In this document: positions 51,734-56,692 of the stretch, in pieces
How the letters are laid out: each line of letters begins with the position of its first letter
Position numbering within the stretch: the stretch's first letter is position 1
Origin: Acidilobaceae archaeon
GTDB lineage: Archaea > Thermoproteota > Thermoprotei_A > Sulfolobales > Acidilobaceae
DNA: 64,000 bases
Direction: 5' to 3'
Assembly (NCBI GenBank): GCA_038897215.1
Contig: JAWAWX010000001.1
Span: 960,001 to 1,024,000 of the forward strand
Translations under genes and position numbers: made by a program
Notes under the pieces: model-generated
Told to the model about the DNA's origin: nothing
Databases searched by the model: none
What the model saw: only the letters and a program-made list of their open reading frames with translations

Positions 51734-53089
51734 CTAAGCGACTACTCTAACCTCGTCGATGAGAAGCGGTGGAGCGTAGATAACGCCAGCTCCCTCAAGC
51801 TCTCTACCTACAGCGAGGAGCTTGGAGCCCAGCATCTCGTAGAAGTCTCCTGAGACCATGCCGCTAACCACTGCTCCCTTGACTTCACCGTTTTCAATGT
51901 AGTCAGCGTTAGTGATAGTAGCGCTGAGATAGCCTCTCGTATAGTCTGAAAGCCACTCTCCTATCACCGAGTATACCACCAGTCCTCTCTTAACGTCTCC
52001 GATTAGCGACTCGAGAGGCTCGCTTCCAGGCTCTAGGATTAGGTTTAGTGGAGCAGGCTCGGGCATAGAGGAGATCTTGGGTCTCACAGCGTTGCCTGTC
52101 GACTCTACCCCCTCTATGCTAGCTGTCCAGGTATCGTATAGAGGGGTTTTGAAGACTCCTTTCTCGACGACTATCGTTCGTCTAGACTCGACGCCCTCAT
52201 CGTCGAATCCTCTCGACCCTAGTGCCGCCTCTACTGTCGCATCATCTAGCACTGTGACCCGCTCGTCTAGCACTCTCTCTCCGAGTCTCCCCGCGAGAGG
52301 AGACCTCTTCTTCTGTATCGCGAGAGCCGAGATAGAGGGGGCTAGGAGAGCGTCTAGTATGCTAGCTGAGACCTTTGGAGCTAGGAGTACTCGCAGTACT
52401 CCAGTCTCTACCTTAGTCCTCCGTAGCCCGGCTAGACTCCTATCAGCTAGGCGTGCGGCTAGCCTCTCTACGTGTAGGTCGCTCAGCCTCCTCACAGTAC
52501 TCTCTTCCCAGAACGCTGATTCCAGTCCAGCGTCTCTAGCCACACCCATGCAGACTAGTGTGAGCCACGTGCTCTCCTCAGCTACCACTTCTCTCTGAGT
52601 GTTGGCTACGAGTCTCGCTACCACGCGAGAGCTGATAGAGCCTCTAGCGACCTCAACTCTTCCTCTGCTCGCGCTCTCTACATCTACCACGAGTTTCTCC
52701 AGAATACCTGCCATAGTCTCGGATGAAGAGCTCACGATAGCCTCGTCGTAGATGCCTCTCGGCTTGCTGGAGGAGAGACCTCGAGGTAGCGCTCTCGGAG
52801 CACTGCTATCTCCGCGCGCTTTACACATGCTGAGAGCTCTCTCGACAAGCGTCTCTACGTCTCTAACCCCCGAGACTACTCCCCCGACAACACTCACTCC
52901 TCTACCGCAGGATACTCTGGTAGCTAGGCTCACAACCACTCCCGCTTTTGAGAGCTCGATTGAGCCTCTGAGGAGACGCATGCTTCTCTCTCTAGCGTAG
53001 ACAGCGTAGACTTCTGCTTCAAGAGCTCCCATGGCTTCAGCTCTCTTGATTGCTACCTCCGAGAGCTCTACCAGGCTAGCGACCACCAA
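51734..53089 (-). CDS. pmbA: TldE/PmbA family protein (non-catalytic partner)
   Basis: FDDEG, STGNA, lacks HExxxH; adjacent to tldD. Confidence 0.88.
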   Translation of the reverse strand: MVVASLVELSEVAIKRAEAMGALEAEVYAVYARERSMRLLRGSIELSKAGVVVSLATRVSCGRGVSVVGGVVSGVRDVETLVERALSMCKARGDSSAPRALPRGLSSSKPRGIYDEAIVSSSSETMAGILEKLVVDVESASRGRVEVARGSISSRVVARLVANTQREVVAEESTWLTLVCMGVARDAGLESAFWEESTVRRLSDLHVERLAARLADRSLAGLRRTKVETGVLRVLLAPKVSASILDALLAPSISALAIQKKRSPLAGRLGERVLDERVTVLDDATVEAALGSRGFDDEGVESRRTIVVEKGVFKTPLYDTWTASIEGVESTGNAVRPKISSMPEPAPLNLILEPGSEPLESLIGDVKRGLVVYSVIGEWLSDYTRGYLSATITNADYIENGEVKGAVVSGMVSGDFYEMLGSKLLAVGRELEGAGVIYAPPLLIDEVRVVA

Positions 53090-54461
53090 CCATTACACCC
53101 TCTACCCTAACGTGGGGACCGCCTAAGCCTACTCTAACCACCTGCCCCTCCTTGCCGCAACCCCCGAAAACGCTGGTTCTCACTCTGAGGTCTCTGCCTA
53201 CAGCCTTGACTCTAGAGAGGAAGTCGAGTATCCTGCCTGAGATGAGTGCTCCTCTAACGAGCTCCACCACCTCCCCTCTCTTCACGAGATAGGAGGGTCC
53301 AGCGTAGAAGGTGAAAGCACCCGTGGCTGAATCCACCTCACCCCCGCCTCCCCCCATCCCCCTCAGGTAGATCCCGTCGAGGTCTTCGAAGAGCTCTTCT
53401 AGCCTGTAGTCTCCTGGAGCTATGTAGAAGTTGGTTTGTCTCACTAGCGGGGAGGATGTGAAGCCTGACGCTCTAGCATTCCCTGTAGTCTTGAGGCCCA
53501 GGCTTCTAGCCACACTCCTGCTAGTCAGGTACTCTCTCAAGACTCCTCTATCTACGACTACAACTCTCCTCTTAACCACACCCTCTTCGTCGAAGAGCAC
53601 AGGATATCCTCCATCTACCATGCCGTCATCGATTACAGTGACCTGCTCCGATGCTATCTTCTCTCCGAGCTTGCCTGAGAGAACTGAGGCCCCTGCTGCT
53701 ACGAGGTCTCCTTCAGCTGCGTGTCCTAGAGCTTCGTGAATAACCGTGCCTACTAGGTCGTTATCGATAACAGCATCGTAGACTCCTGTTGGAGGCATCC
53801 TGGCTTGAGAAGCCTTCACAGCTATCTCCGTGACCTCTGAAGTGAAGCTCCTCCAATCAAAGCTCCTTATCTTCTCCCAGCCTCCCTCGAAGCTCTTCGA
53901 GTCTCTGACTTTCTCCGCTACTCCCGCTGTCTTTGCTACAACGCTGTGAGCTATGCCTACTAGCGTGACTTCTCTCCAGGAGACTGTGCCGTCTAGCCTC
54001 GCTACTAGAACGTAGTCTCTCTCTACTCCCAGAGTCGTAGTGACCGATGCGACCCCCTGGGTCTCCAGCGACTCTCTATTCAGGTCTCTGACTAGCTCTA
54101 TCTTCTCCTCGGGGTCTACTGCTAGAGGGTCTTCTACCACGACACTCCTATACTCTACTCTCCTAGGCTCGACCTCGGCGAGAGCCCAGCTTCTAGCTGG
54201 GAGAGCTGATTCTACGGCTAGTCTCGCAGCCTCTCTAGCCGAGTCCCAGTCTAGAGTTGAGGTGTAGGCTAAGCCTCTGCCTTTCTCCGTGTAGACCTCA
54301 ACAGTGAGCCCCGAGGAGGTAGTGTAGCTGTGTTCTCTCAAGTAGCCGCTATCGACCGAGACTAGCTCATGCTCCGTCCTATGGACTCTAACAACTGCGT
54401 CTACAGCTCCCAGAGAGCCAGCCAGCTTGGCTACTCTCTCGGCTAAATCAGCGTAGAGCAT
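53076..54461 (-). CDS. tldD: TldD family metalloprotease
   Basis: HEALGHAAEGD, DEEG, TGNARA, RQTN, GCGK.GQ...VG.GGPH. Confidence 0.92.
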   Translation of the reverse strand: MLYADLAERVAKLAGSLGAVDAVVRVHRTEHELVSVDSGYLREHSYTTSSGLTVEVYTEKGRGLAYTSTLDWDSAREAARLAVESALPARSWALAEVEPRRVEYRSVVVEDPLAVDPEEKIELVRDLNRESLETQGVASVTTTLGVERDYVLVARLDGTVSWREVTLVGIAHSVVAKTAGVAEKVRDSKSFEGGWEKIRSFDWRSFTSEVTEIAVKASQARMPPTGVYDAVIDNDLVGTVIHEALGHAAEGDLVAAGASVLSGKLGEKIASEQVTVIDDGMVDGGYPVLFDEEGVVKRRVVVVDRGVLREYLTSRSVARSLGLKTTGNARASGFTSSPLVRQTNFYIAPGDYRLEELFEDLDGIYLRGMGGGGGEVDSATGAFTFYAGPSYLVKRGEVVELVRGALISGRILDFLSRVKAVGRDLRVRTSVFGGCGKEGQVVRVGLGGPHVRVEGVMVGGR

Positions 54462-54545
54462 CTCACGAGCACCCCTGAGTTATCGCCAATCTTAAGCTTA
54501 TATACGTGAGCCTGCTGTAACACGCGCGAGGAGGGAGCGCACGTA

Positions 54546-54863
54546 TTGGTTAGCGATAAGGCTATCGGTATCACCTTAGTAGCAGTGTCTCTCGTAGTCA
54601 TACTGCTCTACGCTTGGCTACTATTCCTGCCCCCCGACGTGAGAGTGCTTGGTAGAGAGCTCTCCGGAGAAGAGGTCTCAATGCTTGTAATCAAGGCTAC
54701 AGTGATGGCTGGAGTTCTGGTAGTCTTCGGTCTCGTAGCCTGGATAGGCTACACTCTAGCCACGACACCTCCCCCCAAGCCTATAGAGGAGATCGAGAGA
54801 GAGATAGAGGATGAGCTGAGGAAGCTCGGGTCGTCGAGAGGCAGCGAGAGAGAGCTGAAATGA
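54546..54863 (+). CDS. Conserved two-TM small protein, DPM2-like pattern
   Basis: TM1 DKAIG..LVAVSL....YAW.LFLP; TM2 ending WIGYTLATTPPPKPIEEIE. Confidence 0.7.
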   Translation: MVSDKAIGITLVAVSLVVILLYAWLLFLPPDVRVLGRELSGEEVSMLVIKATVMAGVLVVFGLVAWIGYTLATTPPPKPIEEIEREIEDELRKLGSSRGSERELK

Positions 54864-55990
54864 GAGCTGTGGGCGTAGACCCGGGGACGGGTAGCTTCGA
54901 CGTAGTAGCTGTCGAGGACGGTAGAGTAGTCAGCTCTCGCTCGATACCAACGGATAGAGTGGCGAGAGAGCCGGAGCTCTTGGTGGAGCTCGTTCTATCT
55001 CTCGACGCTGACGTGATCGTAGCCCCCTCAGGCTACGGGGTTCCAGTCACTAGAGGAGACGAGGTCCTAGACGCTAGGAGATTCGCTCTAGAGGTTCTAC
55101 TCTTGTCTAGCGAGAGCGACGTTAACCGGGGGGTTAGCGGGGGAGAGTTCGGAGTCCTAGTCTACGACGCTCTAGCCAAGACAGTCGAAGCTCTCCTAGA
55201 GAGAGCTCGCTCCAAGACTATATTCATACCCTCAGTCATCCTCCTCCCCACAGTGCCCTGGTGGAGGAAGATAAACAAGATAGACATGGGGACAGCGGAC
55301 AAGCTAGCCTCAGCCTACCTAGCCGTGTACGAGCTCCAGGAGAGAGAGGGGGGCTTCGAGAAAGTGAACGCTGTAGTAGCAGAGCTAGGCTTCGGCTACA
55401 ACGCCGCGGTAGCCGTGAGGAGAGGGCTGATCGTCGACGGAGTGGGAGGGACCATGGCCTCAACCGGGGTGATTACAGCGGGTTGCCTAGACTTGGAGGT
55501 AGTAGCTGGAGCCGGTTGCTGGAGCAGATGGGATATCCTGAAGGGGGGGCTAGCCGAGCTCGGAGCAATCTCTCTCGAGAAAGCTGGGAGCGAAGTCTTG
55601 GAGGCTTATGCTGAAAACGTGGCGAAAGACGTGGCTAAAGCCTTAGTCTCGACTCCCGAGGCTGAGATAGTCGTTGTGACGGGCAGGCACGCTAGAGTCG
55701 AGGAGGTCCGCAAGCTTCTACAAGAGAAGCTCCGAGACGTCCAGGTAGTCGAGCTGAGAGGGCTACCCGGAGCCGGGAGCGTCAAGGAGGCCGCTCAAGG
55801 CTACGCTCTCCTAGGCTTAGACCTAGCCGGAGGGCTGGAGGAGAGGCTGGCGAGCAGGATGAGGATAGATGAGGCTTGCGGGACCGTGGCTGACCACCTC
55901 ATCCACCCTAGAGCCGCTGAGCTCAAGAGGAGGATTAGAGAGAGCTACTCCTCTACTGTGGCTAAGCCCCGTTTCTGCCATTCAATCTGA
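54860..55990 (+). CDS. DUF1464 family protein (ASKHA kinase fold)
   Basis: GVDPGTGSFD, APSGYG, K.NKIDMGTADK, ELGFGY, IVDG.GGT, KEAAQG.A. Confidence 0.85.
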   Translation: MRAVGVDPGTGSFDVVAVEDGRVVSSRSIPTDRVAREPELLVELVLSLDADVIVAPSGYGVPVTRGDEVLDARRFALEVLLLSSESDVNRGVSGGEFGVLVYDALAKTVEALLERARSKTIFIPSVILLPTVPWWRKINKIDMGTADKLASAYLAVYELQEREGGFEKVNAVVAELGFGYNAAVAVRRGLIVDGVGGTMASTGVITAGCLDLEVVAGAGCWSRWDILKGGLAELGAISLEKAGSEVLEAYAENVAKDVAKALVSTPEAEIVVVTGRHARVEEVRKLLQEKLRDVQVVELRGLPGAGSVKEAAQGYALLGLDLAGGLEERLASRMRIDEACGTVADHLIHPRAAELKRRIRESYSSTVAKPRFCHSI

Positions 55991-56164: not shown

Positions 56165-56692
56165 CTATCTCTCGACGTCTTCTAGTAGCTTTAGCTGCTT
56201 TGATGAAATTCTATGCTCGAGAGCTATGACTACCTCTCTCCAGGCTCTGATCGTCTTCTCCAGGCTTCTCTCTGAAGCCCCAGCTTTTCTCGAAGCCTCC
56301 TTTACGGCTCTCGACTTAGAGTAGCCGCTGAGCCTTAGATACAGGTATAGCGCTAGCGCTACTCTCACTCTCAGCTTTCTCGGCTTTAGCAGAGGGTGCT
56401 TGGTGATCTCTACGAGGATCTCGTAGACTTCTCTGCTACTCCTAAGCACTCCTAGAGCCTTCTTGTTCACCACAGAGGCTAGAGGATCGGCTCTGGCTTC
56501 TTCCAGGAGCCTGGGGAGCCCACGAAGAGCTCTCTGCTCTCTCCTAGCTTGCCTAGTCTCGTTCTCAGCGTACTGAGGCCTGTCGTCTAGCAGGTGCTCT
56601 GCGACTACTGCTCCGCACGAGGAGCAGACCACGTTACCGTAGAACTCATCCCACACCAGGCTAGTGCTCGAGCAGTACGGGCATCTAGCCAT
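56165..56692 (-). CDS. Truncated TFB paralogue (TFB3-like): C4 Zn ribbon plus short helical domain
   Basis: CPYC....VWD...G.VVCSSCGAV....DD; 175 aa; no EWR B-reader. Confidence 0.75.
   Translation of the reverse strand: MARCPYCSSTSLVWDEFYGNVVCSSCGAVVAEHLLDDRPQYAENETRQARREQRALRGLPRLLEEARADPLASVVNKKALGVLRSSREVYEILVEITKHPLLKPRKLRVRVALALYLYLRLSGYSKSRAVKEASRKAGASERSLEKTIRAWREVVIALEHRISSKQLKLLEDVER

Follow-up and report, generated by a model that had tools for sequence, protein, structure and literature searches.

The window analysed here is a stretch of 64,000 nucleotides from an Acidilobaceae archaeon, whose streamlined genome of 1.16 Mb is assembled as a single contig. On its forward strand lies a gene for a two-TM hairpin protein of the DPM2/PIG-P family (54546..54863, +), given in the ORF listing with a TTG start, a TGA stop and 105 codons' worth of protein (105 aa); the protein quoted for it in the preliminary description is as read from the DNA. 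Upstream, an 84-bp divergent intergenic region contains the TATA-like box TTATATA (54498..54504, +), a putative promoter element 42–48 nt 5′ of the start codon, and a putative Shine-Dalgarno-like sequence, GGAGGGAG (54530..54537, +), lies 9–16 nt before the TTG, both being read directly from the sequence. The TTG start is supported because the resulting N terminus, MVSDKAIG, agrees with the N termini of the homologues. The next gene (54860..55990, +) encodes a 376-residue DUF1464 protein (PF07318, E 1.6e-81, 274.5 bits against a cutoff of 23.5), and its start codon overlaps the stop codon of the hairpin gene in an ATGA (54860..54863, +; read from the sequence), just as had been described.

The AF2 model of the hairpin protein (pLDDT 86) comprises three helices, residues 4–27, 41–72 and 80–104, and hydropathy outlines two segments, residues 1–36 and 42–75, so that by both measures the protein is a small two-TM hairpin like the members of the DPM2/PIG-P superfamily. 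TM helix 1 (54555..54626, +), as delimited by the AF2 model, carries the pattern D4-x3-G8-x2-L11-x3-S15-x6-Y22-x-W24-x4-P29, in which D4, G8, S15 and Y22 are invariant columns among the archaeal sequences. A short and variable loop (residues 28–40), predicted to be extracytoplasmic, leads into TM helix 2 (54666..54761, +), which is placed by the AF2 model, by hydropathy and by hhalign alignment to the TM2 of both DPM2 and PIG-P. Residues 66–84 (54741..54797, +) form the family signature WIGYTLATTPPPKPIEEIE, recognized from conserved columns, peptide patterns and its hhalign alignment to PIG-P; it runs from the last part of TM2 across a proline hinge into a cytosolic helix and varies little or not at all between phyla, with the invariant columns of the archaeal family alignment running from W66 through E90. 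The C-terminal helix (residues 80–104; 54783..54857, +) is E/K-rich and amphipathic according to the AF2 model and a count of charges, and is predicted to be cytosolic. Both termini are predicted to face the cytoplasm, and it is strongly supported that TM2 is followed by a proline hinge and the invariant acidic helix TTPPPKPIEEIE. A Foldseek search of the PDB with the hairpin model returned no match at E ≤ 0.001, which is unsurprising for a bare hairpin; the PDB set searched contains no DPM2 or PIG-P chain.

Two essential enzymes of the ER have DPM2 and PIG-P as helper subunits whose workings are little understood, and human glycosylation disorders arise when the genes for these subunits are mutated. 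DPM2 is a regulatory subunit of the type-II Dol-P-Man synthase and an enhancer of GPI-GlcNAc transferase (GPI-GnT), and the two proteins are known as accessory subunits, acting in Dol-P-Man synthase and in GPI-GnT (PMC5526996, PMC2446393). The resemblance to DPM2 that was proposed from the sequence holds against retrieved DPM2 sequences: BLASTP with primate DPM2 (P0243) finds 13 of 28 identities over TM1, including LVAVSL, at an E value of 9e-7 for this single comparison, which is more than chance. Among the shared residues then listed, LVAVSL and the rest of TM1 bear out, whereas the TM2 matches 'AG' and 'I.Y' mean little alone, though profile alignment does cover TM2. In a six-frame search of the 1.16 Mb genome, the hairpin ORF is the sole match to each of the Pfam models PIG-P and DPM2. 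These matches are weak, with E values of 0.021 and 0.086 and scores of 15.0 against a cutoff of 39.3 bits for PIG-P and 13.3 against 27.3 for DPM2.

Profiles carry the relationship much further. Using eukaryotic DPM2 and PIG-P profiles composed of Pfam-annotated vertebrate sequences only, hhalign aligned a 150-member archaeal profile to DPM2 with 95.8% probability (E 8.4e-9, 68 columns, both TMs) and to PIG-P with 96.0% probability (E 4.1e-9, 80 columns). Reversing one side reduced the scores to 13–21, and reversing both sides restored the match. One hundred permuted decoys that preserve the TM blocks scored 16.4 ± 2.8 (maximum 32.4) against a real score of 51.6, and in the other comparison 19.0 ± 4.0 (maximum 29.6) against 58.0. 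A core-only profile built independently gave 90% and 69% in the DPM2/PIG-P comparisons, and controls with a real TM domain (GT2-TM) and with an unrelated protein (DUF1464) reached at most 0.3% in the same test. An earlier profile of 44 members and low diversity matched PIG-P with P 0.047, within the range of the reversed controls and equalled by 231 of 400 decoys, and matched DPM2 over TM1 alone (76%); the 150-member profile resolved both. Single members also match. At E ≤ 0.01, Pfam PIG-P is found in 50 of the 150 members and DPM2 in 24, the strongest individual matches being to PIG-P (best E 4.8e-10). Two proteins on archaeal contigs exceed curated cutoffs over the full model length, P0466 for both families (PIG-P 39.8 against 39.3 bits; DPM2 32.6 against 27.3) and P0488 for DPM2 (30.1 against 27.3 bits).

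The 105-residue ORF is a real gene of the expressed type whose product belongs to the DPM2/PIG-P family in its archaeal branch, and we regard homology of its product to the eukaryotic proteins as very probable. The profile–profile comparison suggested earlier proved significant beyond generic TM hairpins, with the controls at noise level, and the claim of an archaeal homologue stands on an hhalign probability of about 96%, clean controls and members above curated cutoffs. This kinship is already published and not new: a 2025 study in Nature treats DPM2 and PIGP as pre-LECA paralogues within a family that originated in archaea (PMC12872463).

Like PIG-P (PF08510; yeast Gpi19; a subunit of GPI-GnT), the archaeal protein has a conserved cytosolic segment after its two-TM hairpin. 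The two align at the TM1 pattern G-x2-L-x3-S-x6-Y...W..F.P, at W-x-[IV]-A-x-P-[IV], where TM2 starts, and at the motif T-[TA]-P-[PL] beyond TM2, and hhalign places WIGYTLATTPPPKPIEEIE on the conserved post-TM2 segment of PIG-P, NTAPLxSVDxIT. The tails differ, as PPPKPIEEIE and the E/K helix are invariant in the archaeal family whereas the PIG-P tail is longer and different, and the core partner of PIG-P in GPI-GnT, PIG-C, was above cutoff in none of 41 genomes. With DPM2 (PF07297), the archaeal protein shares its size class, its hairpin and an almost identical N-terminal (T/K)DQx(V/I)GxxLxxxS...YY..W....P. The TM1 motif DQxxGxxLxxxS......Y(Y)..W....P is present in the archaeal family, in common with the DPM2 consensus TDQxVGxxLxxxSxxxxxxYY..W....P, of which D6, Q7, G10, L13, S17, Y23, Y24, W27 and P32 are DPM2 invariants. 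Unlike the archaeal protein, DPM2 stops just past TM2 without the invariant acidic tail, and its partners, Dpm1 (a GT2) and DPM3, were not found in the host genome. DPM2-like two-helix units have an archaeal precedent in the type-III DPMS of P. furiosus, where they work next to the lipid-linked sugar transferase; its TMH1 and TMH3 are reported to be similar to human DPM2 (PMC5526996). Unlike the hairpin protein, its hairpins are fused to the enzyme, and it was not detected when the archaeal hairpin profile was searched against the PDB.

Clustered at 90% identity, the homologues of the hairpin protein fall into more than 1600 groups. An exhaustive HMMER search yielded 553 representative clusters, of which the best 150, down to E 2e-13, were examined; because all 553 are 61–289 aa long, the family has no common fused form. 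The gene occurs in 39 of 41 relatives and, across its phylum, in 233 of 251 genomes; it is missing in eight of nine complete genomes of one family (f13) within the host's order. The peptide patterns WIGYTLAT and PPPKPIEE identify at least 524 confirmed loci in named genomes, spanning Thermoproteota, Bathyarchaeia, Aigarchaeota-type lineages, Brockarchaeota, Baldrarchaeota (Asgard) and Methanocella.

No conserved neighbour emerged from 135 immediate neighbours at 80 archaeal loci. The commonest, AdoHcy hydrolase (9 of 135) and a Na/Ca exchanger (7 of 135), are each confined to one clade, and the contexts overall are varied and mostly housekeeping, including AdoHcy hydrolase, a ribosomal-protein operon and Cdc48. 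Two sugar-related genes show a mild excess: a sugar-nucleotide epimerase lies near the hairpin gene at 10 of 81 loci (6 of 135 immediate neighbours), mostly in one clade with near-identical proteins, and a GT2 gene at 7 of 81 loci (3 of 135). We conclude, with strong support, that the hairpin gene stands alone, without a conserved operon partner.

The host's complement of glycosylation enzymes narrows the choice of partners. Its genome has no match to the GT2 domain PF00535 even at E ≤ 10, and tblastn with 16 GT2 proteins of relatives together with an HMM of the catalytic domain recovered nothing (best E 0.06; 7.7 bits). GT2 was likewise not found in the congener, and both genomes keep the hairpin gene. 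DPM3 (PF08285) gives only a noise-level match in the host genome (E 0.56). In the relatives, the main GT2 enzymes bear their own C-terminal TM domain. These fused domains were considered as a form of the same module and rejected, as their matches to the hairpin family, to DPM2 and to PIG-P are at noise level. The pairing of a Dpm1-type GT2 with DPM3, by which a functional DPM2 subunit would be recognized, is therefore missing from the host genome, and the co-distributed PIG-A and PIG-C that would mark a functional PIG-P subunit were not found either. One soluble GT4 of the host is marginal for the PIGA domain (27.3–28.8 against 27 bits), and the PIG-A signature is above cutoff in only 3 of 41 genomes. 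As a conserved partner this GT4 was rejected on distribution, its orthologues occurring in 7 of 41 genomes against 39 of 41 for the hairpin. The lipid-linked sugar module once envisaged at this locus is not supported, given the lack of a conserved neighbour, of GT2 in this genome, of detectable PIG-C and of co-distribution with the PIG-A-like GT4. Of the host's roughly 1,200 proteins, this leaves as candidate partners its six soluble GT4 transferases (at about 99.2, 129.6, 131.3, 181.5, 185.5 and 574.6 kb of the contig), AglH (about 360 kb) and AglB (about 611 kb), besides a partner unrelated to glycosylation.

Taken as a whole, we lean slightly toward the reading that the protein is an archaeal DPM2/PIG-P hairpin encoded by a stand-alone gene, that its link to DUF1464 is specific to one genus and that it probably serves as an adaptor of a non-GT2 partner. 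By analogy with its eukaryotic relatives, the hairpin protein would probably be a non-catalytic membrane adaptor, its TM hairpin sitting in the membrane beside an enzyme that uses a polyprenyl or inositol lipid and its invariant cytosolic tail docking a conserved partner; the solubility of the host's PIG-A-like GT4 and the mild excess of epimerase and GT2 genes near the hairpin gene are in keeping with such a role. That the partner would be some lipid-linked glycosylation enzyme other than GT2, with the hairpin as its accessory subunit, is a tentative suggestion drawn from the same analogy, to which we give about one chance in three. Slightly less probable is a near-universal TACK/Asgard adaptor that is no DPM-synthase subunit, that works without GT2, as in this genus, and whose invariant TTPPPKPIEEIE tail would dock one conserved partner, be it a soluble GT4, AglH, AglB or a non-glycosylation machine. 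If true, such an adaptor would represent the ancestral job from which the helper subunits of GPI-GnT and DPM synthase later specialized, and the ancestral archaeal partner, if known, would show how the hairpin works and by what route eukaryotes put together their complexes for lipid-linked glycosylation.

The alternative that survives best accepts the homology and places the archaeal job outside glycosylation altogether, with the eukaryotic glycosylation roles acquired later. Extreme conservation of the tail across phyla argues for a universal partner, the gene contexts are varied and mostly housekeeping, and the distribution of the hairpin is independent of GT2, of the PIG-A signature and of PIG-C, all of which would suit such a job. 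Examples would be a TTPPPKPIEEIE tail that docks a universally conserved cytosolic machine, or a lipid-organizing factor. Lipid-linked glycosyltransferase complexes are, however, the only known functions of the superfamily, sugar-nucleotide genes are mildly enriched in the neighbourhood and no alternative partner was identified, and we consider this alternative rather unlikely though a serious contender.

Far less probable is that the hairpin protein is a strict functional orthologue of DPM2 and, as a subunit, regulates or stabilizes a dolichol-phosphate-sugar synthase of the Dpm1 type (GT2). In favour of this, DPM2 ranks with the nearest of the known families, GT2 genes lie within 6–10 kb in some genomes (7 of 81 loci; about 1.8 kb away in G027 and <1 kb in G021), and the origin of the TM-less Dpm1 has been placed in TACK archaea (Lombard 2016). 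Nevertheless, a Dpm1-type Dol-P-sugar synthase is not the partner here, because the genus is without GT2 yet keeps the hairpin gene and because the GT2 enzymes of relatives carry their own TM domain, unrelated to the hairpin family; to this are added the scarcity of GT2 among immediate neighbours and the failure to find DPM3. For the host genome this reading is already refuted, unless a GT2 is encoded on an unassembled replicon. A GT2-free genome that keeps the hairpin amounts to a natural 'knock-out background' and rules out a Dpm1-type synthase as an obligate partner.

The DUF1464 neighbour fares no better as a partner. Its AF2 model (pLDDT 89.9, pTM 0.91) matches butyrate kinase 2 (1saz, 1x9j) in Foldseek at E about 4e-14, within a series of butyrate and acetate kinases from 4e-14 to 1e-9, and a sequence search of the PDB detected no solved relative. 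The protein is soluble, and its ASKHA fold comes closest to the butyrate and acetate kinases. With butyrate kinase 2 of Thermotoga it shares this fold and has motifs of phosphate-binding type (DPGT, DMGTADK and GGT), although the two are only about 16% identical. The 4-bp overlap of stop and start in this genome, the adjoining of the two genes in the congener too and the solubility of DUF1464, which could use an anchor, might suggest that the hairpin is a membrane partner that holds this kinase-like protein at the membrane or regulates it there. In the congener the genes are separated by a 10-nt spacer and do not overlap (ORFs 1471–1773 and 339–1460 of L002). Complex prediction for the pair, with alignments for both chains, returned the verdict 'no answer' (score 0.00, mark 0.32) and weighs neither for nor against a partnership. 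Against such a partnership, adjacency is limited to the one genus (g1), with none of 18 other related loci sharing it and DUF1464 accounting for none of the 135 immediate neighbours at the 80 archaeal loci. Furthermore, the two genes lie 0.1–0.9 Mb apart in complete genomes, and they are distributed independently: four genomes that are 95–100% complete (G027, G029, G031 and G035) have the hairpin gene without DUF1464, and two (G015 and G036) have DUF1464 without the hairpin gene. A partnership is thus highly improbable, and the translational coupling, which the preliminary description had taken as part of a module, is strongly supported as a genus-specific rearrangement and a local accident; the hairpin family is thereby freed of its association with DUF1464.

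Least probable of all is a chance likeness of generic TM hairpins, or a holin or transcriptional regulator: although the protein's own Pfam matches are sub-threshold, its fold search finds nothing specific and 64 of the 150 members also match the two-TM Holin-X (PF07332), these comparisons of sequence leave chance effectively refuted by the reversed, block-permuted and real-TM controls (at most 32 against 52–58) and by the full-length matches above curated DPM2 and PIG-P cutoffs, and Holin-X matches (best 26.2 against a cutoff of 28.4 bits) in every case score below the protein's own PIG-P match and come with chromosomal housekeeping neighbours rather than a phage context. The remaining label, "transcriptional regulator", is frequent for the family in databases, yet no HTH or other DNA-binding Pfam domain occurs in 194 members (44 + 150), except in one 289-aa DUF4332/HHH_5 fusion; the label is a widespread misannotation, which the present analysis corrects.

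We confirmed on the sequence that the small gene of the preliminary description is an open reading frame encoding a 105-aa hairpin protein (MVSDKAIGITLVAVSLVVILLYAWLLFLPP...WIGYTLATTPPPKPIEEIEREIEDELRKL...) from a TTG start at 54546-54863 on the plus strand, and that its stop codon overlaps the ATG of a DUF1464 gene as ATGA (54860-54863, plus strand). The DUF1464 gene encodes 376 aa on the same strand (54860-55990; PF07318, E 1.6e-81). Upstream and divergent lies a tandem pair of TldD/PmbA-family metallopeptidase genes (51734-54461, minus strand; 451 and 461 aa), with a 14-nt overlap between their ORFs, and the 84-bp spacer between this pair and the small gene carries, on the plus strand, a TTATATA box (54498-54504) and, before the TTG, a Shine-Dalgarno-like GGAGGGAG (54530-54537), both presumed functional. 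The divergent arrangement is preserved in the congener, another genome of the host genus.

The small gene is real and strongly conserved. Copies occur in 39 of 41 related genomes. Across the phylum, 233 of 251 high-quality genomes, in 104 of 113 genera, carry the gene, and two to four paralogous copies per genome are common (e.g. G075, G034, and G165), an echo of the eukaryotic DPM2/PIG-P duplication. A word-seeded search returned 1605 homologous clusters at E <= 0.01, and HMMER, run exhaustively over 1.84 billion representatives, found 553 at E <= 0.001, all of 61-289 aa; the protein is therefore normally stand-alone. Using the peptide patterns WIGYTLAT and PPPKPIEE, we collected at least 524 confirmed loci from named genomes, spanning Pyrobaculum, Thermoproteus, Desulfurococcales, Acidilobaceae, Pyrodictiaceae, Bathyarchaeia, Caldarchaeum and other Aigarchaeota-type lineages, and Brockarchaeota, with single cases in one Baldrarchaeota (Asgard) and one Methanocella. 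In another family of the same order (f13; e.g. G036, G072, G114, G127, and G134), only one of nine complete genomes (1.8-2.8 Mb) has the gene; the sole trace in G036, a weak match broken by two stop codons, is possibly a remnant. The family alignment reveals invariant D4, G8, S15, and Y22 in TM1 and an invariant block after TM2, W66-I-G-Y-T-L-A-T-T-P-P-P-K-P-I-E-E-I-E. The AlphaFold2 model (pLDDT 86) places two helices, at 4-27 and 41-72, on either side of a short loop, with a hinge and a charged third helix (80-104) after them.

By itself, the window protein matches Pfam PIG-P (E 0.023) and DPM2 (E 0.11) below threshold, although it is the sole match of each model across the 1.16-Mb genome. 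For comparison, we fetched real vertebrate PIG-P and DPM2 entries with short fragments serving only as bait and confirmed their identity via Pfam annotation. A low-diversity archaeal profile aligned with DPM2 at 76% probability in hhalign, over TM1 only, and gave no significant match to PIG-P; a block-permutation null agrees with this result (32.5 bits versus 16.1 +/- 2.9, with 0 of 400 decoys as high). A diverse profile built from the best 150 of the 553 representatives matched DPM2 at 95.8% probability (E 8.4e-9, 68 columns, both TMs) and PIG-P at 96.0% (E 4.1e-9, 80 columns, both TMs and the tail, with TTPPPKPIEE opposite NTAPLxSVD). Reversing one profile lowered the scores to 13-21, and reversing both restored the match. 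Against DPM2, 100 TM-block-preserving decoys scored 16.4 +/- 2.8 (maximum 32.4; real score 51.6), and against PIG-P 19.0 +/- 4.0 (maximum 29.6; real score 58.0). A core-only alignment built independently from named genomes reached 90% and 69% against DPM2 and PIG-P, respectively, and control profiles of DUF1464 and of the TM domains of relatives' GT2 enzymes stayed at <= 0.3%. Over the whole length of the models, family members with the AWIGWTMLTTPPP signature exceed the Pfam curated cutoffs: P0466 reaches 39.8 for PIG-P (cutoff 39.3) and 32.6 for DPM2 (cutoff 27.3), and P0488 scores 30.1 for DPM2, both on archaeal contigs. In a protein atlas, the nearest neighbors include an Asgard cluster with DPM2 matches.

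The small protein thus belongs to the DPM2/PIG-P family, in its archaeal branch, and the homology of the whole hairpin family, judged from sequence profiles, is very probably real. The proposed kinship holds beyond generic TM hairpins, with matches of about 96% far above the reversed, permuted, and real-TM controls. It is already known and here correctly identified. A 2008 study noted that no accessory GPI-GnT subunits had turned up in archaea (PMC2446393), Gandini et al. 2017 described DPM2-like TM helices fused to Pyrococcus DPM synthase (PMC5526996), and a 2025 Nature paper (PMC12872463) gives "DPM2 and PIGP" as paralogues that arose by duplication before LECA, in a gene family whose origin is archaeal. 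What the host genome adds is one useful twist, a background free of GT2, the glycosyltransferase family of Dpm1-type enzymes.

This genome (1.16 Mb, a single N-free contig, GC 53.9%) keeps AglB/STT3, an AglH-type transferase, and six GT4 enzymes. We tentatively propose that the hairpin protein would act as a membrane adaptor with no catalytic role of its own, using its invariant cytosolic tail to dock a conserved partner, perhaps a GT4, AglH, or AglB, in lipid-linked glycan or glycolipid assembly. An ancestral role outside glycosylation is about as probable. Across 135 immediate neighbors at 80 loci, we found no conserved neighbor of the hairpin gene; the commonest are AdoHcy hydrolase (9), a Na/Ca exchanger (7), and a sugar epimerase/dehydratase (6), followed by GT2 and DUF1616 (3 each). 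The most frequent are each limited to one clade, and the mild excess of sugar genes is partly due to one clade. Among GPI-GnT partners, PIG-C was not found in the 41 genomes, and a soluble, PIG-A-like GT4 of 388 aa lies outside the window, at G000:C1:574522-575685 of the same contig (L112:739-1902, minus strand), flanked by genes for a thermosome subunit and a MoCF-domain protein. It passes the cutoff of the PIG-A-specific Pfam domain marginally (27.3-28.8 versus 27 bits), as do none of 14 control genomes; the signature exceeds cutoff in only three of the 41 genomes, and orthologues of this GT4 occur in only seven.

In the host genome, the hairpin cannot serve a Dpm1-type synthase in the manner of DPM2, and such a role is unlikely as the family's conserved job, because GT2 is absent here and the relatives' main GT2 enzymes (355-404 aa) carry their own C-terminal TM domain, which shows no similarity to the hairpin family. 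The Pfam model detected no GT2, even at E <= 10, and neither did tblastn with 16 GT2 proteins taken from the relatives, nor an HMM of the catalytic domains of those proteins run over every six-frame ORF of the N-free contig, leaving the hairpin without a GT2 partner in this organism. GT2 is absent from the congener as well, and each of the 32 high-quality relatives has 1-15. With AglB, AglH, and the six GT4 enzymes retained, this absence suggests that glycosylation here is streamlined and runs without Dol-P-hexose donors.

The suggested coupling to DUF1464 is local. The two genes adjoin in the host genome and congener only, the latter with a 10-nt spacer and no overlap, and DUF1464 is absent among the 135 neighbors sampled across archaea. 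It occurs in 35 of the 41 relatives, hundreds of kilobases away in complete genomes, and each gene occurs without the other; the pair is not a functional module. The kinase fold attributed to DUF1464 is borne out by its model (pLDDT 90, pTM 0.91), which matches butyrate kinase 2 and acetate and propionate kinases (E about 4e-14), and its invariant DPGT, DMGTADK, and GGT motifs are consistent with an ASKHA ATPase.

Many family members match the 2-TM Holin-X family, in every case scoring below PIG-P and never reaching the cutoff. Many databases label the proteins "transcriptional regulator," an identity rejected on the lack of a DNA-binding domain in the 194 members scanned, save a single 289-aa fusion. 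That metagenomic protein (P0372), the only long member among the best 150 of the 553 representatives, joins the hairpin and PPPKPIEE motif to a C-terminal DUF4332 and helix-hairpin-helix (HHH_5), and such a fusion may be one source of the label.

On the P0466 contigs (L114, L116, and L117), the hairpin gene lies directly upstream, on the same strand, of a large ribosomal-protein operon (S19, L22, S3, L29, RNase P p29, S17, L14, etc.), an arrangement of one archaeal lineage. Within the window, a 175-aa protein at 56165-56692 (minus strand) carries only an N-terminal TFIIB-type zinc ribbon (PF08271, E 5.8e-12), with no cyclin-fold match, a layout reminiscent of a shortened TFB paralogue, perhaps Tfb3-like.
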